Virus record (IMG/VR): IMGVR_UViG_2537561977_000014
DNA: 41,015 bases
Source of the DNA: a virus
Taxonomy: Duplodnaviria > Heunggongvirae > Uroviricota > Caudoviricetes
Reading direction: 5' to 3' (one strand)
The notes beneath the pieces are model-generated. The model was not told the origin of the DNA, ran no database searches, and was given only the letters and a program-made list of their open reading frames with translations. Shown here piece after piece: positions 1 through 35,096 of this stretch. How positions within the stretch are numbered: the stretch's first letter is position 1; each line of letters starts with the position of its first letter. The translations under genes were made by a program, and so were the position numbers.

Positions 1-408
1 CCGGGCAGTGATGTGATTGTCTGCGCTGAAATGGACGAACAGTGGGGCTACGTCGGTGCTAAATCACGTCAGCGCTGGCTGTTTTACGCGTATGACAGGA
101 TACGGAGGACGGTTGTGGCGCACGTCTTCGGTGAACGCACTCTGGCCACACTGGAGCGTCTTCTGAGCCTGCTGTCGGCCTTTGAGGTCGTGGTATGGAT
201 GACGGATGGCTGGCCGCTGTATGAATCACGCCTGAAGGGAAAGCTGCACGTTATCAGCAAGCGTTACACTCAGCGCATTGAGCGACATAATCTGAATCTG
301 AGACAACATCTGGCAAGGCTGGGACGGAAGTCACTGTCGTTCTCAAAATCGGTGGAGCTGCATGACAAGGTCATCGGGCATTATCTGAACATAAAACACT
401 ATCAGTAA
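1..408 (+). CDS. insB: IS1 transposase InsB segment (5' partial at window edge)
   Basis: ORF 13-408 translation identical to the 34685-35080 ORF; recognisable IS1 InsB sequence (..[52 protein letters not shown]..). Confidence 0.85.
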
Positions 409-423
409 GTTGGAGTCATTACC
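1..423 (+). mobile_element. IS1-family insertion sequence, partial copy (window starts inside the element); right terminal repeat ends at 423
   Basis: Bases 1-423 are identical to 34673-35096 of the complete IS1 copy; ends with the IS1-type terminus ...cactatcagtaagttggagtcattacc. Confidence 0.9.
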
Positions 424-737
424 CGAATTTTATAAGTATTTCTGGACACTTTTCTCCTTATAAGAATCGTTTTGTAACGTTCAATCCAGTCTGCCATAGT
501 AAATGAGTCGAACCCTTTAAGTTTTTCAATTAAGGCAGCAGGAGAGTAGTTTTTGTATATATAATGATTTGCTTCAATTGCCTGCGCTACTGCATCTCTT
601 CTTGAAATTTTACCTAGTGTAAATTCTTCTTTCGTCAGAGGGTTGCGCCAGTAATATGCTTTGTCTCTCCTTCGATATGTTAAGTTTCTAGGCAAATTGG
701 GATCGTATTTTTCCGCTGCATGTTTTAACTTCTCCAT
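424..737 (-). pseudogene. int: Lambda-type tyrosine integrase, N-terminal ~105 codons only; reading frame runs straight into the IS1 end at 423
   Basis: Translation ..PNLPRNLTYRRRDKAYYWRNPLTKEEFTLGKISRRDAVAQAIEANHYIY..WIERYKTILIRRK.. resembles the arm-binding N-terminus of lambda Int; catalytic domain absent from the window. Confidence 0.65.
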
Positions 738-968
738 TAACGGACTGTCTCTCCCTTGTCGCCCATTAGGCTGATGGTGTGTTATATCGGTATCAACCTT
801 ATTTGGGTTGATATAGAAAGCCTCCGGAACCACCCTGTAACTCCTCCCGTGTAGTTCAGGTGCAGGATAAATGTTTCCATTCCTTGCCCATCGTCTCAGC
901 GTTGATATTGATGGTGGGTTATCCGGATATCTGAGTTTTCCCCACGTTTTGAGTGTCACAAGATTCAT
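738..968 (-). CDS. xis: Excisionase (lambda Xis-like); in the same frame as the int fragment in the ORF track, exact boundaries uncertain
   Basis: MNLVTLKTWGKLRYPDNPPSISTLRRWARNGNIYPAPELHGRSYRVVPEAFYINP resembles lambda Xis (MYLTLQEWNARQRRPRSLETVRRWVRECRIFPPPVKDGREY..). Confidence 0.5.
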
Positions 969-1074
969 TGCCATACCTCTCACGATATGACCGCCAGTAA
1001 ATATACAGAATACTGGCGGGTGTGGTTGATTTTTAATAATCAGCTATGAAGTTCTAATCTGGATATAATGAAAT

Positions 1075-1287
1075 TCACGAGGACTGAAGTTTCTCGCAAT
1101 TAAAATTTATCAGTTTTACTTTCTGCTCTCTGGAAACGCCTGCTTCTTTTTCCCCTGAGAGCATTTTTTCGCATTCTGATTTCGTTAGTTTTGTCTTTGA
1201 GTATCTTGTCCAGCTGGTAGGAGATCCACCTTCCTTTTCAATAGTGGCTGTAATTTTATACATGAACACCTCCATTAATATTTTCAA
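1075..1287 (-). CDS. Hypothetical small phage protein (70 aa)
   Basis: ORF in operon orientation between ATPase gene and xis; no recognisable motif. Confidence 0.4.
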   Translation of the reverse strand: MKILMEVFMYKITATIEKEGGSPTSWTRYSKTKLTKSECEKMLSGEKEAGVSREQKVKLINFNCEKLQSS

Positions 1288-1313
1288 AAACCGTGTCCAA
1301 AATGCACTTGGTT

Positions 1314-2411
1314 TTACACCGGAATATTCTCATCGTATCCTGCTTGTTGCGTTTCGTTTTGTGTTTGTGGATCCGGGAATGCATATTCAACGCCTTCCAG
1401 TTCAATCCATAGTGCATTACGACCAGCTTTGATTGTCGGCCAGTCCATACCTTTGATTCTTTCCCATGAGCGGGAGGTGAATGTTTTTTCCAGCAAATCA
1501 GCTTTTGCGCGTTTGGCGTCGTTACTGGTGCCCCCATGGTGCTTGTTGAGCAACTCGATAATTTCATCAAGTGCGATTTCTTTTGCACGCTTTTCTTTTA
1601 GCCATGTCGGTGTACCGTCGTTGGCAAATAATTCACTGTTATCCCGTGAGGTATCGATGCCGAGGTGTTCACCTCCCAGGTTAAGAAACTCGATATGAGG
1701 AAGAAAGTTTTTAAATGTTGGGTTTGAAAATACCTGTCCATCAATACGGGTGGAGCGATCTTTTAGTATTCTGGCGGTGCGCCACACCTGACCGGTTTCT
1801 ATGTTCATTTGCTTCTCCATCTGGATCAGGATGGAGGGTTCATAACCGGTTTCTGTTTCTGCTTTCATTTTTATACCGGTTTTTGCCAACTGGCGTTTGC
1901 CATCATCACCTTCGAAAAAGTCATACTCATATCCTGCACGCCCGCACATAATAATGTGCGCCTGACTGTTAACAAATCGATCGGTAAAGCGTCGCCACTC
2001 CTGTTTGAGCCACGCCCAGTCTGAAAATTCCAGTCCTCGTTTACGGTTTCGGCGTCTGGCATACTCGTCGCATAATCCGGTCCAGAAGTGACTGATGGAG
2101 TCGATGATCATTACGGAACCGCTGCTTTCCGCTTCATTAATGGCTTCAAGCAGATCAACAAACGAGCGGGTTTTTGCCGTAAATAATTCGATATTTTCCG
2201 CATCAAAGCGGGGTTTAACCCAGTCAGAGCCTGTTTCTGTGTCCAGAAACATTACCGGGCGGTTACCAGCTTCAATTCCCCGTTGCCGCATAAGCATTAC
2301 CAGACCAATAGCCAGTTCGCTTGCTGTGTAGGTTTTGCCGTCGCCAGCAAACCCCATAATTCCTGCTTTTAGATAGGCCTGTGTGTTTATTGCTCGTTGA
2401 AAAAGCGCCAT
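1314..2411 (-). CDS. P-loop NTPase, RecA-like fold (AAA_24/Sak4-like), probably recombination-associated
   Basis: Walker A GFAGDGKT and Walker B-like VMIIDSIS in the N-terminal half; sits where lambdoid recombination genes lie (upstream of xis/int). Confidence 0.6.
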   Translation of the reverse strand: MALFQRAINTQAYLKAGIMGFAGDGKTYTASELAIGLVMLMRQRGIEAGNRPVMFLDTETGSDWVKPRFDAENIELFTAKTRSFVDLLEAINEAESSGSVMIIDSISHFWTGLCDEYARRRNRKRGLEFSDWAWLKQEWRRFTDRFVNSQAHIIMCGRAGYEYDFFEGDDGKRQLAKTGIKMKAETETGYEPSILIQMEKQMNIETGQVWRTARILKDRSTRIDGQVFSNPTFKNFLPHIEFLNLGGEHLGIDTSRDNSELFANDGTPTWLKEKRAKEIALDEIIELLNKHHGGTSNDAKRAKADLLEKTFTSRSWERIKGMDWPTIKAGRNALWIELEGVEYAFPDPQTQNETQQAGYDENIPV

Positions 2412-2416
2412 AGATT

Positions 2417-2716
2417 TTAGTCCTCCAAATCAATATCAACCTGGTGGTGGGCAATGGTTTCAGCCATGTACCGGATGTGTTCTGCCATGCGCTCCTGAAA
2501 CTCAACATCATCATCAAATGCGTGGCTGATTGCCTGTTTATTGGCACCGTGGCGTTGCAAATGGTCGATGCAGAGCGATTCAAACAGGTGCTGAGGCAGA
2601 CCTTTTTCCAGGTCGTCCGCCAGTTCCGTTTCTTTTTCTTCACGAACGATCTGCTGGTAGTGACGAGCCCATGCCATTTCTTCAATACGATCAAAAATCG
2701 GGTAAGCGCTCATCAC
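2417..2716 (-). CDS. Hypothetical early-region phage protein (99 aa, acidic)
   Basis: ORF tightly packed in the minus-strand operon; no recognisable motif. Confidence 0.5.
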
Positions 2717-2918
2717 TGGTCACTCCAAAATTTTCAAGCTTGTTGGCAATCATCATTGCGATGTCAGGGATTGCAGGCGCATAGGCTATGCACGCAGGAT
2801 TCGCACATAAACCGTAAACCGCCGCAATCAACACCTGTTTTTTCCAGTTGAGTTCATCTTCGCCAGTTTCATTATTGCTATCATTATGCTGATCGCTGCC
2901 AGCGTTCTCCGGTAACAA
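2691..2918 (-). CDS. Hypothetical small protein (75 aa) with a hydrophobic C-terminal half
   Basis: ORF overlapping the 3' end of the upstream large gene; hydrophobic stretch [29 protein letters not shown]. Confidence 0.35.
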
Positions 2919-4630
2919 ATCATCAGCTTTTTCCGTTTACTTCGGCTCTTCTTCCTGTGCTTCATCTGGTTTTTTTCGTCAAAAGTTTCCTGATAAGTTG
3001 CGTCTCCCATCACCGCGCCACAGTCAGGGCAGTTATCCTCGCCAGTCTGATTGCAGGGTGTTCCCTCCTCCGGTTCGCTGTTCTGGTGCTGTTTATCTTC
3101 AGTCTGTCGCACTTCATTTTCCGTTTTTTTGACTTCATTTGAGGAGATATGATGACCGGGAATCCATTTCGAATCATTCGGGTCGCTAATCCCTTCAACA
3201 AATTCTCCGCGAGAGGCAGCCAGTAATTTGTCTGCATCGACAGGATTTTTGGGCGGAATGTTTTTCTGGGCTTCATGGAGTTCTGTCCGCAGTTTCTGAT
3301 ATTTCGCATCAACAGCATTTACCTGTGACTGAGTATCCAGCGGCTGCGTGTCCTGATGATGTTCAGTTGCATCCGGTTCCACTGTTTCAGCCGTTGCCTG
3401 TTCATCTGCCATTGCGCAAGATGGTTGCGGTTTTTCTTCATCATCCTGTTTTCCTTCTTCTGTTACACGTTGCGGCATCGGGGCAGAGGAGCGACCGCAG
3501 GCAATATCCACGATTTCCGGATCAGGGTTGGCATGATCGGTTTCAGTCAGTACCTTGTTCAGATATTCAGTGACGTGCGCGGGGATGACCTCGATACCAA
3601 TCGGTGCTTCTTTCACTAACGCAACCACGATGGCGCGGGAATAATCCATCCCGCCAGGCATGGTGATGAATTTGTCGCGGAAAACAGAAAAGGGCGGTTT
3701 ATTTTCAGCGATAATTTCCTCGACACGTTTAGCGTGTGCCGGATGAAGGTTATAAATGTCCACGTCCATTGAACGAGCCAGTACGCCAGTGGCTACGTCG
3801 CGCGCCAGTGACGTCAGATCGTGAACGAAACCTTCGCCGCGATCGGTGAGGTTCCCGCCGCCAGCATTAGCACCGGAAGCCGTGCGAGTGATACGCGAAA
3901 CACGATTTCCTTTCATCCACTCTTTTGTCAGCAGACCGCGATCGGTGTAGTTGGCATCCAGATATGCTTCGAAAAAAGCAGTCATCAGTCCCAGATTTGA
4001 ATTGCCAGGATTAGGGAAAACTTTGTCAGTATCACGCACGAGTTTGTGGAGGTCGCGAATCTCCAGCGGGTCGAGCAGACTGGTTTTATGCGAAACAGCC
4101 AGAGCAGTAACAGCCGGTAGTTCTTCATCCCGAGCAATGTGTAATGCCTGGAGTTCGTCGCGTGAAACGTGCGTTACCGGTTTTTCGCTGCCGTGTTGCG
4201 CAAGCCAACGAATGGGCAGTTCCTGACCGGAAACTGGCAGGAGCATGTTCTCCTCAATTTCTGTCATGTCTTCGCCGTTGACGTTGGTATTGTCAGTGCT
4301 GGCTGGTTTGTCCTGAACAGAGGGAGAAGATGCGATAAATACCATTGTGATGCCATCTTCCCCGCCTTTTTCGTAACGGTTGCAGAATTCCGTATCAAAC
4401 ACGCCTTCTGGTGGGAGGTCATCAACAACGGGCAAATTGACGCGAACAGGTTTTTTAAAGTCATCTTCATCGTAGCCAGCATCGTCAATCGCAACAGCAC
4501 CACGGGAGATGGCAATGGATAATTTTTTCGCTTCAGCCCAGTAAAAACCGCCTTTAATACCGAGGCGTTTTCTTACTTTGTCATTTTTTGCTTCGTAATA
4601 CAGTGGGTAAACTTGTTTATCGGTGCTCAT
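2828..4630 (-). CDS. Large acidic early-left-operon protein (~600 aa), function unknown; occupies the recE position of Rac-like prophages
   Basis: Long uninterrupted ORF; start chosen at ATG 4630 (MSTDKQ..), preceded by GAGG ~10 nt upstream; Cys cluster CPDC near C-terminus; no nuclease motif recognised by eye. Confidence 0.6.
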
Positions 4631-4663
4631 TGTTTTTAACCTCAACTCATATTCAGATTGCAT

Positions 4664-4948
4664 AAAAGAAACGAACTGATGATGCGATATGAGAGAGTTC
4701 TTTCAGTCGTTGATAACTGATACCGTATTTCTTGTCAGCCTCTTCAATGCGAGCTGTGAGTAATGCAATTTCTTTAATGGCACATACACAACAATCAAAT
4801 GTTCCCAGAACGTAACCGTCATCAATAATTACCGTGACGTTTTCTTTTGGGAAATCTGAATGAAACTATGTAATGTATTCCCACATTTAAATTCGGCGAG
4901 AGAATCGTTAATAACATCAAGTTCAATTCCACATTCAATAATGCTCAT
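4664..4948 (-). pseudogene. Small early gene (~92 codons) split over two frames by an apparent frameshift
   Basis: ATG at 4948 with AAGGAA RBS gives MSIIECGIELDVINDSLAEFKCGNTLHSFI.. then stop; the -1 frame continues ..[52 protein letters not shown]..; switch falls in a TTTCCCAAAAGAAAA tract. Confidence 0.3.
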
Positions 4949-5021
4949 TGCTGTTTCCTTTTTAAGGTTGAGTGAATCCCTGCCATTGCTGGCATAAATT
5001 CAGTTTCGAATATTCAGTTAA

Positions 5022-5309
5022 TTAAAGTTCGTGTGCCATCTTGTCTTTTTCGGCACAAGCTGCACTGCAATATTTTCGTTTCTTTCTGGCAATCATGTTT
5101 CCATGCATATAAATAAGCTCGCCAGTAAAAGCTTTTTCAGGTAAAAACTGTTTATTGCAGAGATGGTAATCACATTGTATTAAATCCGGGTCACCTTTTT
5201 GCTGGAGAATTTTTCTGATTCTCCACAGCCATTTTTTAATCCCGGTATGACTGATGGTCTGCCTGAGGGCAGGTGTAAAACAATAATCAAGCATGGGGTT
5301 CATATCCAT
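5022..5309 (-). CDS. Cys-rich small protein (95 aa), putative zinc-finger
   Basis: Cys pairs CDYHLC and CSAAC; basic residues; ORF in operon orientation. Confidence 0.45.
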   Translation of the reverse strand: MDMNPMLDYCFTPALRQTISHTGIKKWLWRIRKILQQKGDPDLIQCDYHLCNKQFLPEKAFTGELIYMHGNMIARKKRKYCSAACAEKDKMAHEL

Positions 5310-5348
5310 AGCTCCATTTTTATTTTAAGGAAAGCAACTGCTCTACGG

Positions 5349-5872
5349 TCATGTTTTAATTGCGCCCCGGTTTACAAGAGTCCAGCCCTGTTTTTCCAGA
5401 TAAAACCGGAAAGTCTCCAGGGTACAGACCAGTGCGCCATCAGGAACGGTTTCGGTGAATTCGACATTGCCGAATTTGTCGAAGTGAACAACCAGAGTGC
5501 GACCATCACCCGGAATCATCTTGTCAGCAGGTGGGGTGTTATTCTGGCGCAGTTCGGCCTCCATGCGGTCGAACTCAGCAATGTAGGCTTCTTTGAATGC
5601 GGCGGCTTTTTGCCAGTGAAGCCCATCACCAGGAAAACGAAGCCGTTTTTGGTGATTTGGTACATTGGGCGTTTTTCGCCTTTGGTGTCGGTGTAGGTGA
5701 CCGACACAAAATTGTGTTCGTTAAAATTTGATGAGCAGTCTAAATTGCGAATTTTATCCAGCACACGTTCGTGGCGTTTGCCGAAGAACTCCGCAATAGC
5801 AACAGACGTAGTGACAGCGCGACCATTTTCGATGGTTACGTCAGGGTGAGAAAGGGCAGGGATAGTAGCCAT
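5349..5872 (-). pseudogene. rha: Phage regulatory protein Rha family, frameshifted
   Basis: N-terminal frame ..AIAEFFGKRHERVLDKIRNL..PMYQITKNGFVFLVMGFTGKK then nonsense; C-terminal homology (MEAELRQ..) resumes in another frame (ORF 5349-5564); frames are reconciled by one extra A in the A5 run (plus-strand TTTTT at 5587-5591). Confidence 0.65.
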
Positions 5873-6140
5873 TTTAGTGGCCTCCTTAACTGTTTTAGTC
5901 TGCGATTACCAGTTAGTAGCTGGTGATCGGGTGTCAACTAGAGCCAGTTAAGAAGCTCCGGGCATATTCCCCTTACGGGTATTGTATTACGCCTCTCCAC
6001 CCGATCTTTGTACGGATGTGCCGTATTTCAGGCATAAAAAGCCGCAAGGCTATCGGGTGCGGATGACCGCTTAACTGTTTCTAGTGCGATCATCTTGCAA
6101 CAATGCAGGTTGCTTTGTCAATATCCCGGATATCAGAAAG

Positions 6141-6172
6141 CAAAAACCCCTGAACTGGTGGGGACAGGGGCG
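6141..6172 (-). terminator. Rho-independent terminator downstream of the toxin gene
   Basis: Minus-strand hairpin CCCCTG-(12 nt loop)-CAGGGG followed by TTTTTG. Confidence 0.5.
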
Positions 6173-6190
6173 CTACTAAATGTGTAATTG

Positions 6191-6511
6191 CTAAACTCTG
6201 ATCAATCGTCTGAACAGTAACTGTTTAATATCCTGACGTTGGGAAAGAATCACGTGTGCAGTGATAATATCCTCCTCGACAGAGTACAGCACTCTGTAGC
6301 CTTCTGGTGTGTTGCACTCTCTGTATTTAGCCACGCCAAGCTTGAGCAACTCCGGGCATAACTGACATCCGGACGGGAATGCAGTAACTCTTGTTTCAAA
6401 TCGCTCAAGAATTTCTGCTATTACAGGGCGTGGGTCAATGTCGTTACTCCGGAGATGGTCGGCAATTTGCTCAAGGCTTGTTCTGGCGGTAAGTGTGTAT
6501 TCAACCTGCAT
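6191..6511 (-). CDS. Type II toxin, RelE/ParE superfamily
   Basis: ~106 aa with C-terminal ..EGYRVLYSVEEDIITAHVILSQRQD.. signature; immediately downstream of a Phd/YefM-like ORF. Confidence 0.7.
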   Translation of the reverse strand: MQVEYTLTARTSLEQIADHLRSNDIDPRPVIAEILERFETRVTAFPSGCQLCPELLKLGVAKYRECNTPEGYRVLYSVEEDIITAHVILSQRQDIKQLLFRRLIRV

Positions 6512-6532
6512 AGTTAACCTTAGTTGTTAAAG

Positions 6533-6751
6533 CTATCCAGCAACTGTGCTTTGAAAACACGCGACTTCAGACTTGTCGTTTTCTGAAATAGTGAGAAGTT
6601 TCAGTAACGCAATAGCGTTCTCGCGTTCCTGTTGCTGCTCATAGGATTCAATTACGTATGCAGGAACACCATTCTGCGTGACAAGAATGGGTTCCGCCAG
6701 GTCCAGTGAGGCTGCGTTTTTCTTGATGTAGCTGATAGTTTCTATTTTCAT
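6533..6751 (-). CDS. Type II antitoxin, Phd/YefM-like
   Basis: 72 aa; ..PILVTQNGVPAYVIESYEQQQE.. resembles Phd/YefM; 21 nt upstream of the toxin gene. Confidence 0.65.
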   Translation of the reverse strand: MKIETISYIKKNAASLDLAEPILVTQNGVPAYVIESYEQQQERENAIALLKLLTISENDKSEVACFQSTVAG

Positions 6752-7153
6752 ATGGGTGTTCCTTTTTTCATTGGGAGTTATAATTTAGTCTGAATTTAGT
6801 TTTCTCGCAAGTGGCGGAAGCCGCCAGTTTGGTTTGTTCAAAAAGTCACATCCCGACCCTGCGTTCCGGTTCTGCGGATATATCAGGGCATTCGGCGGCA
6901 CCCCGAATTGTGGTTTACGTGACAGCCCGGTTCATATTGTTAAAGAGCGGCGGATTTCAGGTGTGGAAATCCCCTGCACGAATAACGGTTAATTCGCGCA
7001 TAATTAATTAAATAAATTTTGTTGATGCGGTGCCTGGTGCCTCCAGGTGACGTTAACCAGTTAACAATTAACGCCGGAATAAGGGATTTTCCTTACTGTT
7101 TTAACTGTTCCGCGTGCGCTCAGCCGCATTCACCGCATCACAAAATTCACTTT

Positions 7154-7212
7154 AAAAAGGGCGGCAGAGCAAAACTGATGCCGCCAAAAGTTTCATCGCC
7201 AACAACTCAATC
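7154..7212 (-). ncRNA. dicF: DicF-like small RNA candidate (Qin-type cell-division inhibitor sRNA) with intrinsic terminator
   Basis: Minus-strand ..UUUGGCGGCAUCAGUUUUGCUCUGCCGCCCUUUUU: 7-bp GC stem plus U-run; resembles remembered E. coli DicF core; lies downstream of dicA and the ydfA-B-C-position ORFs as in Qin. Confidence 0.45.
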
Positions 7213-7515
7213 TGGAGATGTTGTGGCGGGTTGTCACTTAATCGTATGGTCAACCTGACAACCCGGTGGACATTTGCGAGGAACGGAGAAACCCCGCCAT
7301 ACTTACCGCCGCGCCATTTCGCGGATTGCCACAACCGGAAGCGCACGGTCGGCGAAAATTTAACGACAGGCTATCTATGACCAGCTACCTCGCCGTGCGC
7401 TTTCGTGTTGTGTGCCTGCTTTTAACCACGTCAGGCGAGGTGGTTCCTGTTATTCCCCAACAACAAGAAATTTGTATAATCTGAATACCCCAACAATAAG
7501 AAGAGTGAGCAAGTG

Positions 7516-7911
7516 ATGTTTGATCTATCATTAGCGATGTCAGCTCTCAAAGAGACTGCATCAATGTTAAAATTATTCAATGAAGCAAAAACTCAGGCTG
7601 AGGTTGATCGCGCTGTGTCTGAAATAAACTCTAAGTTGTCAAGCATTCAGCTTGAATATTTGTCTCTCATTGATGAGCTGACAATCTCTAAAAGCAATGA
7701 GGCTGCGCTCAAAGCAAAACTCACGGAGATAGAAAAGTTTAAGTTCCAAAGTGAAGACTGCGAACCTCGCCAATTGATTACTGGAACGATTGTGTATGCC
7801 AGACAGTGCAATACTAGCTCTGGCAAGATTACCATGTATTTTTGTCCAGAATGTTTTGCGAAGAGAGCAATATCTATATTGCAACCTTTCCCTTATCGAG
7901 GAAGGCGATAA
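7516..7911 (+). CDS. Hypothetical protein: N-terminal coiled coil plus C-terminal Cys4 zinc-ribbon-like motif; AT-rich moron on the opposite strand to flanking genes
   Basis: ORF of 131 codons; Cys pattern C-x14-C...CPEC; TATAAT at 7475-7480 flanked by direct repeats CCCCAACAA(C/T)AAG; visibly lower GC than neighbours. Confidence 0.55.
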   Translation: MFDLSLAMSALKETASMLKLFNEAKTQAEVDRAVSEINSKLSSIQLEYLSLIDELTISKSNEAALKAKLTEIEKFKFQSEDCEPRQLITGTIVYARQCNTSSGKITMYFCPECFAKRAISILQPFPYRGRR

Positions 7912-8101
7912 TATACGAAAACTCAATGTCCCTCCTGTAAAAATGAGTATCTCATGGACTACAATTTCAATAATGATTTTTGAGTCAAGGTATTCAGATT
8001 TTTAAAGAACATGCCGGATACTCACCCGTGTCCGGCGCACGCACTCCACCTCACCCGTGGAGAACTCCTTAATTACCAACCTTGGCTTCGTTGGTTAGCC
8101 A

Positions 8102-8320
8102 TTAACGCTGGTATGTAATCATTCTGGCAATGCTTAATGCCGCTGCTTTTTCCAGCCTGGTGATATCCTGCTCCTGAGCGGACAGATTTTCGGCCTCCTT
8201 AGCCCGGGCTTCATTGGCCCACTTCAGGTCCTGCGCAGCCTGAATTTTCTGGTGCATCCACTCATAAAGTTCATCATCGGTATAGTCTGGCGCGATGATG
8301 ACGGGGTCACGTTTCTGCAT
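8102..8320 (-). CDS. Small phage protein (72 aa) in the YdfC position of a Qin-like dicA operon
   Basis: ORF; position between the YdfB-position ORF and the DicF-like RNA. Confidence 0.5.
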   Translation of the reverse strand: MQKRDPVIIAPDYTDDELYEWMHQKIQAAQDLKWANEARAKEAENLSAQEQDITRLEKAAALSIARMITYQR

Positions 8321-8349
8321 ACCGATTCCTCGCAGTGCTGTTTCGCTTA

Positions 8350-8478
8350 TCAGCCGTTAGATTTTGCCGAACTGGAAAGCGCCTGTTTAAACTCACTGAA
8401 GCTGAGAGCTTCTTCGCCTTCGGCAAGGCCTTCGAAGTATTCTTCGTAAGCCTTTTTCATGATTGTGTCGAAATCCAT
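8350..8478 (-). CDS. Small protein (42 aa), YdfB-position ORF
   Basis: ATG at 8478 to stop at 8350 gives MDFDTIMKKAYEEYFEGLAEGEEALSFSEFKQALSSSAKSNG; size and position match Qin ydfB; below the ORF-track cutoff. Confidence 0.4.
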   Translation of the reverse strand: MDFDTIMKKAYEEYFEGLAEGEEALSFSEFKQALSSSAKSNG

Positions 8479-8479
8479 A

Positions 8480-8689: not shown

Positions 8690-8716
8690 CGTGCGGTGTC
8701 TTGATGAATGAAATTT

Positions 8717-26508: not shown

Positions 26509-26884
26509 TGTAACAGATGTGCTTTTTGACCCCGATTTTTGCGACTTCAATTTGTGGGTAACACGCCGTGTGCAAACGGTGGATGAGGATGGGATCGGCA
26601 GCGACAGCGAAGTTAAAAAGCAGTTTGCCGGAGTCGTTACTGTTGATCGCTCTCTGGAAAACCGTCGTATGCAGGCCGGGCAGGTAATCAGTGGTGCAAT
26701 TCTGATTGTGACGACTGAGCGACTGACGCAGGGACAGACTGGCCGTGATGCCGATATCGTGACGTATCAGGGCCGTGATTATCGTGTGACTTTCGTCGAC
26801 CCGTATACAGCGTATGGTGCCGGATTCGTTCAGGCGCATTGTGAGTTGCTGCCGTTTGATGGGGGAATTCCGGTTGAGCAATAA
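26495..26884 (+). CDS. Tail completion/neck protein (putative)
   Basis: ORF translationally coupled to neighbours. Confidence 0.45.
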   Translation: MPTLDVTDVLFDPDFCDFNLWVTRRVQTVDEDGIGSDSEVKKQFAGVVTVDRSLENRRMQAGQVISGAILIVTTERLTQGQTGRDADIVTYQGRDYRVTFVDPYTAYGAGFVQAHCELLPFDGGIPVEQ

Positions 26885-27422
26885 CACCAGCACAGAGCGC
26901 GGATGGCTGATACCAACCAGTGGCGATCCGGATTATGACGAAGCGCTCGACAGGCTGTTAAGCCAGTGGATGCGTAACGTTTCCGGTCTGTCTGCCGGGA
27001 TGGTTCGTCCGCGCTGGCAGAAAGAGCAGCCGCCACTGCTACCGGCTGAAACGAGCTGGTGTGCGTTTGGGGTTATCGGATGGTCAGGTGATGACAGTCC
27101 GGCATTCACCAGACAGACCGATGATGGCTCTCAGCTCTGGCGGCATGAAACGATTGAGTGTATGGCTTCGTTTTATGGTCCGGCGGGGATGGTGTATGCG
27201 TCCCGGTTTCGTGACGGTATATCTGTGCCGCAGAACAATGCAGCACTGAATGCGCTGGGGCTGTCTCTTGGCGATTACACAGGTCTGACTCCCTTCCCTG
27301 AACTTATTAATCAGCAATGGGTCCGCCGCTACGATATGACGGTGCGTCTGCGCCGGAAGGTTGTGCGCGAGTACGGTATTAAATCGCTGGTGGAAGCACC
27401 AGTCATCTTTTTCGGAGATTAA
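26859..27422 (+). CDS. Tail-associated protein preceding the sheath gene (putative)
   Basis: ORF; start at ATG 26859 overlapping upstream gene end. Confidence 0.45.
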   Translation: MGEFRLSNNTSTERGWLIPTSGDPDYDEALDRLLSQWMRNVSGLSAGMVRPRWQKEQPPLLPAETSWCAFGVIGWSGDDSPAFTRQTDDGSQLWRHETIECMASFYGPAGMVYASRFRDGISVPQNNAALNALGLSLGDYTGLTPFPELINQQWVRRYDMTVRLRRKVVREYGIKSLVEAPVIFFGD

Positions 27423-27425
27423 GCT

Positions 27426-28571
27426 ATGGCACAGGGCTTGCCTGTATCAAACGTTGTTAATGTTGATGTGATCATGTCGCCGCGTGCAGCATCAGGGCGA
27501 AATTTTGGTGCATTACTCATTCTCGGCCCGTCCACAATCATTCCGGTAAGTGAGCGCATTCGCCGTTATTCTGCTGCGGAAGATATTGGAAAAGATTTTG
27601 GCGTGGAATCACCAGAATATAAGGCTGCGCAGGTGTTTTTCTCACAATCACCGAAACCTCAGGAGGTTTTTGTTGGTCGTTGGGTGAAAACGAAGGGAGA
27701 CAGCGAACAGGCCACGCCTGAGACGCTGGAGCAGGCTGTGAATGCCATGCTTGATTATACTTCATGGTATGGGCTGGGGATTGCAGACGATGCAGATATT
27801 CCGGATGCAGACTGGCTGAAAGTGGCTGCGGCGATCGAATCCTCTTCTGTAAGCCGTATTCTGGCGATTACGACAAGCGATGAGAAATGCCTGCAGACTG
27901 CATCCAGCGATGATTTGGCATCAAAACTGAAAACCGCCGGATATTCACGCAGTTTTATTCAGTATTCATCGGGTAATAAATACGCTGCGTTATCTGCATT
28001 TGGCCGGGCATTCACGGTTAATTTCAATGGCAGTAATACCGCGATTACGCTCAAGTTTAAGCAGGAGCCGGGTGTCGGGTATGAAACACTGACAGTCAGC
28101 CAGGCATCGGCACTTGATGCAAAAAACTGCAATGTATTCGTGTACTACCAGAATGATACGGCTATCCTCCAGCAGGGAGTGATGGCTAACGGCGATTTCT
28201 TTGATGAACGCCACGGCCTGGACTGGTTACAGAATTATGTGCAGACCAACCTCTATAACCTGCTTTATACCAGCACCACGAAAGTACCCCAGAGTGAAGC
28301 CGGTATTACCCGACTGTTATCAAGTGTTGAAAAATCACTGGATCAGGCCGTTCAGAATGGACTGATTGCTCCGGGCGTATGGAACGGTGGCGACCTTGGT
28401 CAGTTGTCATCAGGTGACACGCTGCCCAAAGGTTATTACGTATACGCCCAGCCGCTGGATGAACAGGCACAATCAGAACGTGAAGCCCGTAAGGCTCCGG
28501 TGATTCAGGCTGCAATAAAACTTGCAGGCGCGGTTCATTACGCTGACGTACAGATTAACGTTGTTCGCTAA
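27426..28571 (+). CDS. Contractile tail sheath protein (DUF3383-like)
   Basis: 381 aa ORF followed by small tube-like gene, chaperone with frameshift, and tape measure: canonical myovirus order. Confidence 0.65.
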
Positions 28572-28581
28572 GGGGAAGTGA

Positions 28582-29022
28582 ATGTCTACCTATTCTTTTA
28601 TGGATGTCACTGCGACGCTGACCGGGCCGACCGGTTCGATTGACCTCGGGTACGGTTCGGCAAGTTCTGAAGAGGGGATTGTGGTTGCGATGGGCGGTCC
28701 TAAAAACACCATGACCATCGGTGCTGATGGCGAAGTGATGCACAGTCTCCATGCAGATAAAAGCGGGACGATTACCGTTAACCTTCTGAAGACATCACCG
28801 ACAAATAAAAAATTGTCGCTGGCGTATAACGCACAGAGCCAGTCTTCTGCCACATGGGGGAATAACGTTATTGTGATCCGAAACAAGGTCAGCGGCGACA
28901 TCATCACGGCACGCAGTGTTGCGTTCCAGAAACAACCGGATAACGCCAACGCTAAAACCGGTAATACGATGCCGTGGGTGCTTGACTGCGGCAAGATTGA
29001 CCAGGTTCTCGGGGAGTTTTAA
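28582..29022 (+). CDS. Tail tube protein
   Basis: 146 aa ORF directly after sheath gene. Confidence 0.6.
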   Translation: MSTYSFMDVTATLTGPTGSIDLGYGSASSEEGIVVAMGGPKNTMTIGADGEVMHSLHADKSGTITVNLLKTSPTNKKLSLAYNAQSQSSATWGNNVIVIRNKVSGDIITARSVAFQKQPDNANAKTGNTMPWVLDCGKIDQVLGEF

Positions 29023-29025
29023 TAC

Positions 29026-29478
29026 ATGGAATTCGAAATCAAAGGCGTGAAATATCGCGCGGCAAAACTCAGCGTTTTTGACCAGCTGAAAGTGACCCGC
29101 AAACTTCTGCCGGTGCTGGCAGGAATGATGTCAGATTTCGGGAGCATTCGCTCCCGTTTGCCTGCTGACGGCAAAATAGACACCGTGAAATTCGAGCAGT
29201 TAAAACCGGTGTTTGAAACCATGCTCCCGCGTATCGCTGAGGAACTGTCTTCCCTGACCGAAGATGACACCAGTGCAATTATTCATCCCTGTCTTGCGGT
29301 GGTGTCGCGGCGTCATATGGACGGATGGGTGCCGGTATTTACCCAGGGCGAACTGATGTTTGATGATATTGACCTGCTGGTCATGCTGCAGCTGGTGGCG
29401 CGGGTGGTCGCCGATTCGCTAGGAAATTTTTTGCAAGGACACCCTACCAAAGAGACGCCCATCCCGCCAGCGGAATAA
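29026..29478 (+). CDS. Tail assembly chaperone; -1 slippery site A_AAT_TTT at 29424-29430 would extend the product to 29675
   Basis: ORF upstream of tape measure; -1 frame stays open to 29675 (..FNSLPGGEDFILRPALAFHIDQKDLNSGAVDLCRIALLNDYLDMCEDNDVRVEKW..). Confidence 0.6.
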   Translation: MEFEIKGVKYRAAKLSVFDQLKVTRKLLPVLAGMMSDFGSIRSRLPADGKIDTVKFEQLKPVFETMLPRIAEELSSLTEDDTSAIIHPCLAVVSRRHMDGWVPVFTQGELMFDDIDLLVMLQLVARVVADSLGNFLQGHPTKETPIPPAE

Positions 29479-29655
29479 CCTTCAATAGCCTGCCGGGTGG
29501 TGAAGATTTTATTCTTCGTCCGGCGCTTGCCTTCCATATTGACCAGAAAGATCTTAACAGTGGTGCGGTAGATCTCTGTCGCATCGCGCTTCTTAATGAC
29601 TACCTTGATATGTGCGAGGACAACGATGTCCGGGTAGAAAAATGGAGAGAGGATA

Positions 29656-31608
29656 ATGAACGCCGAGACTATTAAAGATTTCCTCGTCTCGCTTGGCTTC
29701 AGTGTGGATGATGCAGGAGCGAAAAAGTTCGGTTCTGTCCTCGCCGGTACAACTGCAAATGTCATCAAAATGGGGCTGGCTGTTGAAGGAGCTGCGCTGT
29801 CCGTGGTGGCCTTCACGGCTAAGATCGCCTCCGGTCTGGATAATCTTTACTGGGCGTCACAGCGCACCGGCGCGACAGTCCAGGGAATTCAGTCTATTGG
29901 CTATGCGGTTTCGCAGGTTGGCGGCAGCGTGGACGCTGCGCGATCTTCTCTGGAAAGCCTCTCCCGGTTTATTCGTAACAATCCCGGTGCAGAAGGCTTT
30001 CTGAATCGCCTGGGCGTACAGACCCGTGATGCCAGCGGTAACATGCGTGACATGGCCGCTATTTTTACTGGTGTAGGCCAGAAGCTCAGCGGTATGCCGT
30101 ATTACCGGGCTAACCAGTATGCGCAGATGCTGGGCATTGACGAAAATACCCTTATGGCTATGCGTCGCGGAGTGGGGCAGTTCAGCGCTCAGTATTCAGA
30201 AATGGTGAAAGCGATCGGATTTAATGCCGATCAGGCTGCCTTATCGTCAAACCGGTTTATGACCTCGCTGAAATCGCTCGGTGAAATGGCCGGGATGGCG
30301 CGGGACAAAATCGGATCGAATCTTGCGGACGGACTGGCGGGGCAGATTGATAACCTGCGCAAAAAGATAATTGAAAATTTTCCCAAAATTGAAGTCACCA
30401 TCACAAAGGTCATAAAGGGGATCCTCTGGCTGGGTGAGATAGTCGGGCGGGGTGCATTCCGGATAGTCGATGGTGTCGGAGATATCATCGAGTGGTGGGG
30501 GAAACTGGATGCCGAAACGAAAACCCTGATAGAGGTTATCGGCGGTCTGGTTGTCGCCATGCGGATACTTAACTCTACTTTCTGGATGTCACCTATAGGG
30601 CTGATTACCGGTCTGATCGTGGCTCTCGGTCTCTTGTGGGAAGACTACAAAACATGGAAAGAAGGCGGTAACAGTCTTATCGACTGGGAAAAATGGCAAC
30701 CAGCAATAGATAAAGCGAAGGATGCGATCACCTAGCTTCGTGATCACCTTCTGGAACTAAAAGATGGTGTTGGCGGCTGGCAAAATGCACTGGAAATCCT
30801 CGGTACATTCATCGCGGGTGTCTGGGTATCCAAGGTTCTGGGGGCTTTCGGGAAAATATCAGGTTTGCTGGTCCCGCCGTGGTTAAAAGGCTGGATGGCT
30901 TATGCTGCGTATTTGTACTCTGATCGCGAAAATATTGGTGCCAGTGCGAAGTCATCCTGGGATTACACGAAACAAAATATTGGAGATTCATTGCGCTGGC
31001 TTGGCATTGATACCGATTTTGGTCGTAATCCTCATACCGTAAAAGGCGCAAATATTCAGTCAGATATTCCAGGTGCTGAGCCGGAACAACATGCGCAGTC
31101 TACGAAGCGTACTTTAGCCGATCGGAATAACAATCCAGGGAATATTCGCCCGGTGAGCGGTAAAGGGTTCCGGTTTTTCGAATCAGCTCTTGAGGGCTGG
31201 GAGGCGATGAAAAACCAGCTCATGCGTTACTTTACCGGGAAAACAACCGGACGGGCATTACAGACTATTCAGGATATTGTCAGTACCTGGGCCCCGGCAG
31301 GTGATAACAACGATCCGAAAAAGTATGCACAGGATGTTGCGAAATGGATGGGAGTATCACCGAATGCAATATTGAATCTTACAGATCCCCGGACTATGGG
31401 AGCATTGATGCAGTCGATGGCGCGCAAAGAAGGTTATTCAAACTGGAACAGCCCGCTGGCGTATCAGGCCGCCGCTGGCAACCTTAACCAGCAGACTGTT
31501 ATAAATGTTCATGGAGTTAACAACCCTCAGGAGGCGGCTAATCTGATCGCTGACAAGCAGGGGGCTGTAAATGCCAGGGCGGTACAGCAATTGAAAGGAC
31601 CTGCGTAA
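29656..31608 (+). pseudogene. Tail tape measure protein interrupted by an in-frame amber (TAG) codon at 30733-30735
   Basis: ORFs 29656-30735 and 30865-31608 are in the same frame, separated only by TAG; sense sequence resumes immediately (..DAIT*LRDHLLELKDGVGGWQNALEILG..) with no ATG/RBS for the distal part. Confidence 0.65.
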
Positions 31609-32258
31609 TGGACTTTTTATCTGTTTTACTGCAGCAGCGAACCCGCTCAATAGGAATCATTATTCCTGATGTGGTTATTACCGAAAAGCACACTGACGCC
31701 TTGGAAATTACGGAACATCCGGTTGAACAGCCCACGAATGCTGGTGCCAGTGGTGAGGGCGCTGGTTACATATCAGAACACGCATTCAGGCGCCCTTCTG
31801 AGGTTGTGATGGAAACCGGTTTTTCCGGAGGCGGATCGCTGCTTGATTTTGCCAGTAACCTGACTGCTACCAGTTTACTGGGGCTGAGCCCGAAAGAACT
31901 GTATCAGGAACTGCTTAACCTGCAGCGGAATCGTATTCCTTTCGATGTGACAACCGGCAAGCGTATTTACAACAATATGTTGATAAAAACGCTGGAGGTC
32001 ACGACCGATAAGAGTAGTGAAAATGTGCTTCTGGCGACACTTACCCTCAGGGAAGTAATTATTACCTCCACGCAGTCAGTCAGGGTTGCCCCGAAAAACA
32101 ATATGACCGAGGGAGTCGGAACGTCTGCTGTGCAGAATACAGGCACCAAAACAACGGTGCCGCCGAATAATTCCATTCTGAAATCGCTGCCACAGATGGC
32201 GCAAGAAGGTATCTCCACTGTTGATGGGTATTTGAGCAATTTATTTCTGGGAAGGTGA
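31608..32258 (+). CDS. Tail/baseplate protein (putative)
   Basis: ORF overlapping the tape-measure stop. Confidence 0.45.
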   Translation: MDFLSVLLQQRTRSIGIIIPDVVITEKHTDALEITEHPVEQPTNAGASGEGAGYISEHAFRRPSEVVMETGFSGGGSLLDFASNLTATSLLGLSPKELYQELLNLQRNRIPFDVTTGKRIYNNMLIKTLEVTTDKSSENVLLATLTLREVIITSTQSVRVAPKNNMTEGVGTSAVQNTGTKTTVPPNNSILKSLPQMAQEGISTVDGYLSNLFLGR

Positions 32259-32261
32259 TTC

Positions 32262-32564
32262 ATGAAAGCCGTAGAAATCCCACTGGTTGCTGACAATCAG
32301 ACTTTTGCCACCACAATTAACGGTTCGGTTTATCACCTGTCTGTCATCTGGCGAGGCGAGTGCTGGGTTCTGGATCTTGCTGACAGCAATGGCTCCGCCA
32401 TTATATCAGGTATACCGATGATTACGGGGGCTGACCTGCTGGCACAGTATCGATATATGGATCTGGGTTTTTCTCTGGTGGTGCTCTGCGACGTGGCAGG
32501 GCAGGAGAATCCGACGCAATTCGATCTTGGAACGCTCTCACACCTCTATGTTTTCACGGAGTAA
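32262..32564 (+). CDS. Small tail/baseplate-associated protein (putative)
   Basis: 100 aa ORF in the tail module. Confidence 0.4.
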   Translation: MKAVEIPLVADNQTFATTINGSVYHLSVIWRGECWVLDLADSNGSAIISGIPMITGADLLAQYRYMDLGFSLVVLCDVAGQENPTQFDLGTLSHLYVFTE

Positions 32565-32566
32565 CA

Positions 32567-33607
32567 ATGTCGAAAAACTGGATGCGTCACTTTGAATTAT
32601 TGCTTGTTGATGATAAGGGCGACGGGATAAAAATTTCTGAGCTTAAAGTCACTTTCAATATTCAGAAAATGCCTGCGACCATATTTAATGGATTTGTTGG
32701 AAATTTTAAGGTTTATAACCTGTCTCCTACCACTCAGAACCGGATTATGCAGAAGGAGTTTTCGCGTATACAGGTTATTGCCGGATACAAGGGGCAACCG
32801 GATGCAGCAGGTAATTATCCTGATGAAAACGTTGGTATGATATTCAACGGAGATATCCGTTTTACTGTCACTGGTAAAGATAATGCCACAGACAGTTGGA
32901 TCATGTTGCAGTGTATTGACAGCTGGGAAGGCCACCTGAACGCAAGTGTGAAAACCACAGTGGCTGCTGGCTGGAAGTACAGCGATCTTTTCAGTCTGGG
33001 TATGAAATCATTCGAACCATATGGCATCGAATCCGGTGCAGTTCCTGACATGCCTGAAACGGTATTTCCCCGAGGTCGCGTTGTTTATCAAAACACATCA
33101 AGGTTGATGAATCATATCGCAGGGCAGTGTAAAGCTAACTGGTGGTATGAAAATAATCTGGTAAATATTGTTCCTGAAGATAAATATATTGGTGTTGCTA
33201 CGGTGTTGAATGCTAACACCGGGCTTATCAGTATGCCACAGCAGACGATGGGAGCTGGCGTAAATGTCAGATGTCTGATTAATCCAAATATTAAGCTCGG
33301 TGGGCTTATTCGTCTGGATCAGGCATCTGTATACCGTGCCTCTTTGAGTAATGACCAGGTGGCGAAATCGCCAGCACGACTGGATGAGTCTGAAAGCGAC
33401 GGTAATCTCTACGTTAACGGTCTGCCAGGCATGTCACAGCCTGCCAGCATTAATACTGACGGTGATTACATTGTGGGCAGCATTGATTATACTGGCGACA
33501 CCCGAGGGCAGGCGTGGTATATGGACCTGCTTTGCCTGGCTAAAGGGAGTAAAAGTTTACTCACTCCTGATACGATAGCGAAAATAAGTGGGGTACCAAA
33601 TGCTTAA
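32567..33607 (+). CDS. Baseplate protein (putative)
   Basis: 346 aa ORF; last structural gene before AT-rich cargo and IS1. Confidence 0.5.
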   Translation: MSKNWMRHFELLLVDDKGDGIKISELKVTFNIQKMPATIFNGFVGNFKVYNLSPTTQNRIMQKEFSRIQVIAGYKGQPDAAGNYPDENVGMIFNGDIRFTVTGKDNATDSWIMLQCIDSWEGHLNASVKTTVAAGWKYSDLFSLGMKSFEPYGIESGAVPDMPETVFPRGRVVYQNTSRLMNHIAGQCKANWWYENNLVNIVPEDKYIGVATVLNANTGLISMPQQTMGAGVNVRCLINPNIKLGGLIRLDQASVYRASLSNDQVAKSPARLDESESDGNLYVNGLPGMSQPASINTDGDYIVGSIDYTGDTRGQAWYMDLLCLAKGSKSLLTPDTIAKISGVPNA

Positions 33608-33842
33608 ATGGATCTTATTACTGGTATATTTTGTGACTTTGTCTTCTGTGGCTGCGGTAACATGCACCACTTCAAATACAGGAACAACTTACTGTACTGG
33701 TACAGACAGTAGTGGTTCTACAGTTAAAACAGAATCTTATACAACCAATACAGGTACTACGTATACCACAGGAACGATTAATGGGAGTGCAGTACATCGT
33801 GAATGCCAGGCGACCAATACTGGCACAACGTACTGTAATTAA
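33600..33842 (+). CDS. Small secreted Cys-containing protein with NTGTTY(C/T)TGT tandem repeats
   Basis: Signal peptide MLKWILLLVYFVTLSSVAA; mature part has three NTGTTY repeats and four Cys; AT-rich. Confidence 0.5.
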   Translation: MLKWILLLVYFVTLSSVAAVTCTTSNTGTTYCTGTDSSGSTVKTESYTTNTGTTYTTGTINGSAVHRECQATNTGTTYCN

Positions 33843-33877
33843 TTTTTTTAAGAAATCAGCTATAAGAGACATTTGTA

Positions 33878-34219
33878 ATGAAGAAAATATTCCTTCTCGC
33901 AGTGTTGACTCCAACAATTTGTGTAGGTGGAACGCTGAATGATTTTTTTGGACTGCACACCTCACTGGCTGATAACTACATCATCAAGAGAGAGATCACA
34001 AATAGGGCTGTTTCTAATGCGGCTATGGACGCTGTATCTAATGGTCGTGAGGCGGATTTTGGTGATGAGTTAATGAAAGAACATGGTGATAGTTATGGTG
34101 AAATAGCTCTGCGTCAACTCGCTTTCGAGTGCGGTTATTCTTTTTCCGATAGTGGCCAATCTCTTACGATTCTAAAAAAAGAAGAATGTAGATTGGTGCT
34201 ATCTGAAAATAAGAAATGA
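33878..34219 (+). CDS. Small secreted protein of unknown function
   Basis: N-terminal signal peptide MKKIFLLAVLTPTICVGG; AT-rich; followed by a terminator. Confidence 0.5.
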   Translation: MKKIFLLAVLTPTICVGGTLNDFFGLHTSLADNYIIKREITNRAVSNAAMDAVSNGREADFGDELMKEHGDSYGEIALRQLAFECGYSFSDSGQSLTILKKEECRLVLSENKK

Positions 34220-34282
34220 GTTCGCTAAATTAACTTTTCACGGTAATTGCTTCTATCACCATGGAAAGAAAACTAGCTACAT

Positions 34283-34308
34283 AAAACCCGCCTTCGAGTG
34301 GGTTTTTT
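34283..34308 (+). terminator. Rho-independent terminator after the secreted-protein genes
   Basis: AAAACCC-(10 nt loop)-GGGTTTT followed by TT. Confidence 0.45.
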
Positions 34309-34383
34309 GCTTTCTGGAGGCATATGAAGGTAATGCTGCCAACTTACTGATTTAGTGTATGATGGTGATTTTAAGGTGCTTGC

Positions 34384-34683
34384 GTGGCTTCCATTTCCAT
34401 CAGATGTCCTTCCTGCTCCGCTACTGAAGGCGTGGTGCGTAACGGCAAAAGCACTGCCGGACATCAGCGCTATCTCTGCTCTCATTGCCGTAAAACATGG
34501 CAACTACAGTTCACTTACACCGCCTCTCAGCCCGGTACGCACCAGAAAATCATTGATATGGCCATGAATGGCGTCGGATGTCGCGCCAGTGCACGCATTA
34601 TGGGCGTTGGCCTCAACACGGTTTTACGTCACTTAAAAACTCAGGCCGCAGTCGGTAACCTCGCGCATACAACCGGGCAGTGA
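34384..34683 (+). CDS. insA: IS1 InsA (zinc-finger DNA-binding protein); variant 3' end because the frameshift-window A-run is A5
   Basis: [85 protein letters not shown].. matches IS1 InsA; A-run at 34635-34639 has five A. Confidence 0.85.
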
Positions 34684-34684
34684 T

Positions 34685-35080
34685 GTGATTGTCTGCGCTG
34701 AAATGGACGAACAGTGGGGCTACGTCGGTGCTAAATCACGTCAGCGCTGGCTGTTTTACGCGTATGACAGGATACGGAGGACGGTTGTGGCGCACGTCTT
34801 CGGTGAACGCACTCTGGCCACACTGGAGCGTCTTCTGAGCCTGCTGTCGGCCTTTGAGGTCGTGGTATGGATGACGGATGGCTGGCCGCTGTATGAATCA
34901 CGCCTGAAGGGAAAGCTGCACGTTATCAGCAAGCGTTACACTCAGCGCATTGAGCGACATAATCTGAATCTGAGACAACATCTGGCAAGGCTGGGACGGA
35001 AGTCACTGTCGTTCTCAAAATCGGTGGAGCTGCATGACAAGGTCATCGGGCATTATCTGAACATAAAACACTATCAGTAA
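34685..35080 (+). CDS. insB: IS1 InsB (transposase catalytic part)
   Basis: Translation matches IS1 InsB; identical to the partial copy at the window start. Confidence 0.85.
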
Positions 35081-35096
35081 GTTGGAGTCATTACCG

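Follow-up and report, generated by a model that had tools for sequence, protein, structure and literature searches.

A probable IS1-associated deletion of baseplate and tail-fibre genes and an IS1-split integrase gene in an ipaH3-carrying prophage

Introduction

How did two identical, directly repeated copies of the insertion sequence (IS) IS1 come to bracket some 34 kb of a prophage, one cutting the integrase gene and the other lying at a junction that lacks a target duplication? The question is raised by the IMG/VR virus record IMGVR_UViG_2537561977_000014, a stretch of 41,015 nucleotides (nt) that we call the window throughout. The window is a defective temperate-myovirus prophage that carries the effector gene ipaH3 and lies at the yebY/pphA locus of a chromosome of the Shigella/enteroinvasive Escherichia coli (EIEC) type. 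A preliminary description, made from the sequence alone, had suggested IS1-mediated deletion or fusion of prophage segments. By comparison with related loci, we find that the complete IS1 copy very probably marks a deletion within a single prophage and that the integrase gene was probably disrupted independently.

IS1 is the dominant expanding IS in Shigella/EIEC and a cause of disruptions and deletions there (PMC7373316). The chromosomal ipaH genes are surrounded by genes of prophages and by ISs (PMC7373316; PMC8072062), and the manner in which they were integrated has been described as uncertain (PMC8072062).

Results

The complete IS1 copy occupies positions 34329-35095 on the plus strand, begins with GGTAATGCTGCC... 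and ends with ...GGAGTCATTACC. The preliminary description had its start right but placed its end at 35096, and the element is 767 bp long rather than 768. It has the features of an IS1 of ~768 bp: imperfect terminal inverted repeats of ~23 bp (GGTAATG... / ...CATTACC, the two ends reading GGTAATGCTGCCAACTTACTGAT and ATCAGTAAGTTGGAGTCATTACC) and the open reading frames (ORFs) insA (34384-34683, with an aberrant length of 99 aa) and insB' (34685-35080), to whose products identical proteins are known that carry the Pfam domains PF03811, PF12759, and PF03400 (InsA, DDE_Tnp_IS1). Compared with a 99.9% identical 768-bp IS1 in E. coli 7/2, which is flanked by a clean 9-bp duplication (GGTTTCCGG), the sole difference is one missing A at 34635-34640; the copy is thus 767 bp long because the A6C frameshift motif reads A5C. 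Apart from this missing A, it is also identical to the IS1 copies of five related loci (L006, L028, L029, L031, and L033; related loci are designated by L numbers). This type of IS1 is found in 4,971 of the 5,426 complete E. coli genomes, and the repeat itself is therefore unremarkable.

The partial copy (1-423, plus strand) comprises the 3' 423 bp of the element, that is, part of insB' and the right terminal repeat, and likewise ends with ...GGAGTCATTACC. As had been claimed, it is identical to the 3' part of the complete copy in the same orientation, with 0 mismatches between 1-423 and 34673-35095. The first 344-345 bp of this copy and its left flank lie beyond the window edge. At each of the three visible junctions the IS1 terminus is precise, and both ends of the complete copy are intact at the novel joints that they form. 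The sequences flanking the complete copy, GCATATGAA on the left (34320-34328) and GACAAAACG on the right (35096-35104), read letter for letter as first described and are not a duplication. The same IS1 variant is flanked by 8-9-bp duplications in five simple insertions (E. coli 7/2, L006, L028, L029, and L031), and no duplication of that size accompanies the complete copy of the window.

To the left of the complete copy stands a contractile-tail and baseplate-hub module and to its right a tail-fibre assembly gene, tfa, that lacks its first 59 nt and is followed by a side-tail-fibre gene, which bears out the separation of the two modules noted earlier. We compared this junction with related genomes, as the preliminary description had proposed; flanks that were contiguous and carried a 9-bp duplication would have pointed to a simple insertion, and they were found in none of them. 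In L022, an NCTC assembly that carries the exact IpaH3 protein of the window next to pphA, the two flanks are separated by exactly 4,130 bp; this locus matches 30987-34328 with one mismatch (left flank 99.97% identical) and 35096-41015 at 99.76% identity. Exactly 4,130 bp also separate the flanks in L026, the same locus in the complete genome CP065611.1 (left flank 99.97%, right flank 99.49%), and 4,298 bp separate the corresponding flanks in the sister prophage L001. As the flanks lie 4,130 bp apart in relatives at the same locus, the IS1 marks a deletion and neither a simple insertion nor a fusion of unrelated modules. Of the two processes first suggested, deletion is thus upheld, and fusion is not needed, both flanks belonging to one colinear prophage. 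The deletion of 4,130 bp also accounts for the absence of a target duplication at this copy.

Judged by these relatives, in which it holds six baseplate and fibre genes, the missing segment encoded a spike, which is a membrane-puncturing protein (250 aa), a sheath initiator (117 aa), baseplate J (399 aa), a wedge protein (226 aa), and a tail fibre (362 aa), and included the first 59 nt of tfa. The left breakpoint lies just past the spike ribosome-binding site: on the plus strand, GCATATGAA (34320-34328) ends with the A of the spike start codon (A/TG), and L022 and L001 run from ...GCATATGAA directly into TGCCAGTTTC, their spike coding sequence starting at that A. The right breakpoint falls in codon 20 of tfa, at GACAAAACG...; in L001, where 44170 is the first position of tfa, similarity to the window sets in at 44229. 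No repeat or microhomology is common to the reference sequences at one breakpoint and at the other. In the ancestral arrangement (L022, L026, and L001), the missing DNA adjoins the IS position, as it does in adjacent deletions. Together, these comparisons make it very likely that an IS1-associated deletion occurred at the complete copy and that the integrase gene was disrupted independently.

The partial copy abuts int', the N-terminal part of a tyrosine integrase gene (424-721, minus strand) with a Pfam Arm-DNA-bind_1 domain, which is colinear with the intact 358-aa int of L002, L003, and L005. The statement that this IS1 truncates the integrase was borne out, positions 423/424 corresponding to 1925/1926 in the intact int of L002; the number of codons left, given earlier as ~105, was corrected to ~100 (299 nt). 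The remaining int' covers the Arm DNA-binding domain. We propose that IS1 inserted into int at codon 100, most likely as a simple insertion that would have split the gene, because nearby IS1 copies in the int region of other lineages are simple insertions. The state of the DNA left of the window, as we infer it from these analogues, would be the rest of IS1, the CGAATTTTA duplication, and the remaining ~258 int codons; specifically, the 5' 344-345 bp of IS1 would be preceded by ...GTTGATTTGCCCGAATTTTA and then by int codons 101-358, attL, and yebY.

The analogues are the following. L039 carries at 16089-16786 an IS1A, 91% identical, that lies 13 bp from the int site of the window and has its own duplication (GTATTTCTG). 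In L035, a simple IS1 insertion at ~19432-20197 is found at the int stop codon, with the duplication TGATTTTA, and in L005, from an O121 strain, an IS1A (1085-1782) overlaps int at its 3' end. In different lineages (window, L039, L035, and L005), IS1 or IS1A has thus inserted independently at least four times in or beside one integrase gene. L039 had been considered as an IS1 at the same site, and hence as a proxy for the unseen flank, and was rejected as an independent event, being an IS1A variant 13 bp off with its own duplication. Similarly, the apparent sharing of the 9-bp flank CGAATTTTA by the L035 IS1 proved to be a coincidence of gapped alignment. The contig of L040, a near-identical short-read assembly (GCA_012768515.1), stops at window position 432, nine bases inside the int flank, which fits a repeat at or near that point in the L040 genome without proving one.

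None of the three junctions of the window was found in any collection searched by junction scans or junction-spanning megablast. The int-IS1 junction was absent from the 5,426 complete E. coli genomes (megablast) and, in exact scans, from the species representatives, the metagenome contigs, and IMG/VR; the predicted far-side junction of a simple insertion was absent from IMG/VR and the metagenome contigs. Look-up of the junction-specific proteins xis-int' and IS1-tfa' returned no exact match.

Related tail modules provide precedents for the proposed deletion. In L028 (GCA_900449095.1), a simple IS1 insertion at 10850-11617 lies in tfa with the 8-bp duplication GAATTTCG. In L033 (GCA_047308285.1), the IS1 at 8261-9028 has a right junction identical to that of L028, while its left junction lies 2,413 bp further left, inside baseplate J, with no duplication. 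Side by side, the two loci may be read as the states before and after a process like that proposed here for the window: they share with it the IS1 variant, the tail module, and the orientation, one holding a simple insertion and the other an adjacent 2.4-kb deletion. They differ from the window in the position within tfa (nt ~133, not nt 59) and in the left breakpoint (baseplate J, not the spike start codon), and they belong to a different chromosomal copy of the prophage. A further independent example is the unrelated E. coli ET474 (L043, region 5585-6760): in a Rac-like prophage beside trkG, an IS1 abuts the 5' region of a divergent tfa, and all DNA back to a truncated terminase gene is missing. 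ET474 (H142) had at first seemed to share the IS1-tfa junction of the window and was rejected as a sharer of it, its tfa being divergent and its junction lying a few bases away from the equivalent position. Across lineages, IS1 insertions or deletions have thus arisen several times independently in the baseplate/tfa module.

We also examined the accuracy of the source assembly. In IS1, the A6C motif (AAAAAAC) joins insA to insB' by programmed -1 frameshifting (PMC12428005). The window reads AAAAAC at 34635-34640, a position that falls outside the partial copy, and every related IS1 copy has A6. As we read the sequence, A5C puts insB' in the +1 instead of the -1 frame and extends insA to 99 aa. 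The same 99-aa InsA is recorded in the assembly collection in 432 blocks, and in some genomes several times, which fits recurrent homopolymer miscalls. Between the window and L040 there are 3 substitutions in 15.7 kb, and in 13 of the 14 indels the window is one base shorter, mostly in A/T runs; such sites recur in comparisons with L001, L002, L021, L022, and L035. In all, the window is one base short of several independent references at ~17 sites, nearly all of them A/T homopolymers (712-716, 2969-2976, 4632-4637, 4844-4848, 4958-4963, 5353-5357, 5606-5611, 6040, 6552, 6565, 7911, 8754-8758, 15003-15007, 25368, 34635-34639, 36952, and 39471), and they are concentrated in IS1 and in regions repeated among prophages. 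These one-base deletions look like a homopolymer error signature of the source assembly and not like biology.

One of these sites affects the integrase junction. The ORF at 402-983 (minus strand) joins an excisionase domain to the integrase Arm-binding domain because a T6 run in the overlap of xis and int reads T5 near 712-716, a one-base gap relative to four references including the near-identical L040. Given the error signature, both the A5C motif and the fused xis-int' ORF are probably assembly errors. If A5C were real, the complete IS1 would be non-autonomous, unable to make InsAB' by -1 frameshifting.

The remainder of the window has the composition of an integrated prophage, with an int/xis end, a structural module, and a defined site. 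In relatives, the int/xis end adjoins yebY and the ipaH3 end adjoins pphA; in the window, int is truncated and the chromosomal backbone is reached at ~39612. All 5,426 complete E. coli genomes match the window from 39612 onward, which places the right boundary of the prophage near 39611/39612. The backbone (39612-41015) contains pphA (40080-40739, plus strand; Pfam Metallophos) and yebW (40740-41015, minus strand; DUF1482). In the segments tried, the attL and attR regions of L002 shared no run of 12 nt or more that could represent an attachment core.

Next to int' lies the excisionase gene xis (688-968, minus strand; Pfam Exc), followed by an early, immunity, replication, tRNA, and lysis region (985-17621, no strand assigned) delineated from the annotation of homologous regions and 99.9% identical to L040 and 99.8% to L035. 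Within it, a RelE/ParE toxin and Phd/YefM antitoxin pair (6191-6751, minus strand) is shared by VL40, L035-L042, and the window and is absent at that position from FDAARGOS_943/944. In the replication region, a 260-aa gene differs in frame by 6 bp at 10441-10456 from its 262-aa counterparts in L001 and L035; it has one AGAGGA/GAGGAA repeat unit fewer, a form also present in L040. Four prophage tRNA genes (15840-16150) comprise one with a CAT anticodon, Arg-TCT, Thr-TGT, and Gly-TCC. The CAT-anticodon tRNA is called Met by ARAGORN and its homologue Ile in the RefSeq annotation; the fourth is annotated as Val in the FDAARGOS_943 yebY/pphA prophage.

The head and contractile-tail module (18417-34219, plus strand) encodes terminase, portal, capsid, sheath, tube, tape measure, baseplate hub, and a 113-aa product, as assigned from the Pfam domains of homologues, and is 99.92% identical to L001 and 99.97% to L022 and L026. 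A TGG to TAG nonsense codon at 30733-30735 lies in the 650-aa tape-measure-like/lytic transglycosylase gene (29656-31608) and splits it, leaving two ORFs of 359 and 247 aa; in L001 the codon is TGG. The head/tail module is ~97% identical to the induced E. coli prophages vB_EcoM-689R2, -611R5, -683R1, and -606R2 and ~80% identical to Salmonella phage SEN34, these identities covering 57-65% of 18400-34328. Compared with SEN34-like temperate myoviruses and these induced prophages, the window has a broken int, the tape-measure nonsense codon, and the ipaH3 cargo, and it lacks the spike, baseplate-wedge, and tail-fibre genes.

Beyond the complete IS1 follow tfa' (35096-35582, plus strand; Pfam Caudo_TAP), without its first 59 nt, and a 422-aa side-tail-fibre N-terminal-domain gene together with a DUF4376 gene (35606-37447, plus strand; Pfam phage_tail_N and DUF4376), both common to L001, L002, and L021-L024. 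A tandem duplication of CTGG at 36513-36520 keeps the 422-aa gene in frame, and L022 and L026, which lack those 4 nt, have side-tail-fibre products shortened to 304 and about 353 aa. The terminal cargo gene at the right end of the prophage is ipaH3 (37627-39342, minus strand), which encodes a 571-aa type III secretion system effector and E3 ubiquitin ligase (Pfam LRR_TTSS and NEL; ipaH3/Hc in RefSeq in relatives). The exact IpaH3 protein was found in 7 assemblies. Within this minus-strand gene, the 20-residue leucine-rich repeats of IpaH3 are reflected in four tandem 60-nt units at 38794-39033 that are 62-100% identical, and 269 bp (39343-39611) separate the ipaH3 start from the chromosomal backbone. 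In L038 (16984-20321) and L039 (16978-20094), the neighbours of the integrase end are a further 571-aa ipaH gene and a DUF4376 gene, and not yebY, which suggests tandem prophages or, for the 47.5-kb L039 contig, a circular or duplicated form.

The prophage is also a mosaic. From 424 to ~8476, and again at its right end, it resembles the yebY/pphA (ipaH3) type, and its core (8476-34328; immunity, replication, and structural genes) is 99.7-99.9% identical to the ybhA/pgl (ipaHb) type. The latter is represented by L001, a sister prophage that carries ipaHb and lies between ybhA and pgl, in genomes that also carry a yebY/pphA prophage. We take the ybhA/pgl and yebY/pphA loci to lie in inverted orientation on opposite sides of the replication terminus in K-12 coordinates. 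L040 is 99.89% identical over 432-16151 and L035 99.80% over 3056-16151, and the same mosaic is present at the same locus in L022, L026/L035, and L040, all of which lack the IS1 copies of the window. The IS1 copies therefore did not create the mosaic, and a fusion of two prophages by IS1, which we had considered, was rejected on the evidence of these relatives (L035, L026, L040, and L022).

Discussion

Taken as a whole, the window is best explained as a grounded ipaH3 prophage that underwent two separate IS1 events, a reading that we consider likely. For the event at the complete copy, the most likely route is the classical single-IS1 adjacent deletion. IS1 would first have inserted at one of the two breakpoints, the spike start codon or tfa nt 59; one of its ends would then have attacked, within the same molecule, a target at a distance of 4.1 kb, by intramolecular replicative transposition, removing the intervening DNA together with one copy of the original target duplication. 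Within the deletion reading we give this route about an even chance. The involvement of IS1 in the formation of deletions was reportedly described in 1975 by Reif and Saedler for the E. coli K-12 gal region (cited in PMC8860574). As in those adjacent deletions, an intact IS1 stands precisely at the novel joint, no target duplication is present, and the DNA adjoining the IS is missing. Unlike those deletions, which were selected in the laboratory, the event in the window is natural and was inferred by comparison; moreover, no single-IS1 precursor has been found for it, and the sequence would fit recombination between two IS1 copies equally well.

Such a recombination would have started from two independent same-orientation IS1 insertions, located at the spike start codon and at tfa nt 59, between which RecA-dependent homologous recombination would have removed 4.1 kb and one IS1 copy. 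It predicts the product observed, with one intact IS1, one flank of each insertion, and no duplication, and for Shigella the stated mechanism is that homologous IS copies delete the DNA between them (PMC7373316; PMC8072062). The tail module is, besides, often hit by IS1 in relatives (two copies less than 1 kb from the left breakpoint in L006, and further copies in L028, L029, L031, and L033). It requires three events rather than two, however, and an IS1 at either breakpoint was seen in no examined genome. We regard it as a serious though less probable possibility, and for reasons of parsimony we slightly favour adjacent deletion. The order of events and the choice between transposition and recombination are thus what we infer. 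An assembly artefact, in which two IS1 copies around an intact baseplate segment were collapsed or the flanks of different loci were joined through the repeat, appears very improbable. Compared with a near-identical short-read assembly and with four further references, the window has lost single bases in many homopolymers, which shows that the source assembly is not error-free, and the source genome contains several near-identical prophage modules and many IS1 copies; against this, the flanks are colinear parts of one prophage in the correct order and orientation, homopolymer errors are typical of long reads, which easily span a 0.77-kb IS1, and analogous deletions occur in the independent assemblies of L033 and ET474. 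Finally, two identical direct IS1 copies that bracket a DNA segment recall Tn9, which has this structure, and the copies and the 33.9 kb between them could in principle have been inserted as a unit. The inner DNA, from the int N-terminus to the baseplate hub, and the outer right DNA (tfa', the side-tail-fibre gene, and ipaH3) are, however, colinear with an uninterrupted prophage at the same locus in relatives; the 34-kb segment therefore still sits in its native context and did not arrive by transposition. On the left, so far as it is visible, the outer right flank is not repeated as a duplicated target, and neither a foreign target nor a duplication outside both IS copies was found. A composite transposon is accordingly the least credible of these explanations.

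Several points weigh against the deletion by a single IS1 and the simple insertion in int. Adjacent deletion and two-IS1 recombination would yield sequence-identical products, and the mechanism therefore cannot be told from the sequence. No relative has a simple IS1 insertion at either breakpoint, so that the intermediate is hypothetical; a precursor was found neither in the 5,426 complete E. coli genomes nor among species representatives, metagenome contigs, IMG/VR, and the protein-look-up assemblies, Shigella-labelled complete genomes having been reached only indirectly. If the A5C motif is real, the deletion needed transposase in trans or preceded the mutation. Given the error signature of the assembly, a mis-join through IS1 is conceivable, at a very low probability. 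A rearrangement might also lie on the unseen left side of the partial copy.

The prophage is grounded: its int is split, the spike, wedge, and tail-fibre genes are missing, tfa is truncated at the 5' end, and the tape-measure-like gene contains a nonsense codon. A broken int and the lack of baseplate and tail-fibre genes mean that it can neither excise nor build these structures, and ipaH3 is fixed in the chromosome; the gene and its 269-bp upstream region are intact. It is a reasonable expectation that the two direct identical IS1 copies could recombine and remove the 33.9-kb interior. In none of the genomes examined (megablast, 5,426 complete E. coli genomes) was the predicted single-IS1 product of such a loss found; if the 34-kb interior were lost, ipaH3 would be left behind.

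The clustering of IS1 in these prophages could be due to selection for fixing the effector gene and preventing lytic induction, or to a strong IS1 target hotspot in int. That the disruption of int and of the baseplate/fibre genes represents a repeated, selected grounding of ipaH-carrying prophages and not neutral decay seems to us improbable.

The events in the window resemble the IS degradation of Shigella/EIEC genomes (Hawkey et al. 2020, PMC7373316; Seferbekova et al. 2021, PMC8072062), with IS1 dominant, genes interrupted, and DNA deleted. They differ in scale from those surveys, which were genome-wide and did not describe the junction reported here. This is ordinary IS1-driven prophage decay of a kind already documented for Shigella/EIEC, and nothing in it is new in kind. 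Its practical value lies in annotation, namely in showing which parts are pseudogenes and which apparent frameshifts are probable assembly errors. It also touches the remark that the integration of chromosomal ipaH genes is uncertain (PMC8072062), ipaH3 being plainly the terminal cargo of a complete yebY/pphA prophage when the window and its relatives are considered together. The window thus provides a well-resolved example of how IS1 immobilises a prophage that carries a virulence gene, the integrase gene being split and the baseplate and fibre genes deleted while ipaH3 is kept.

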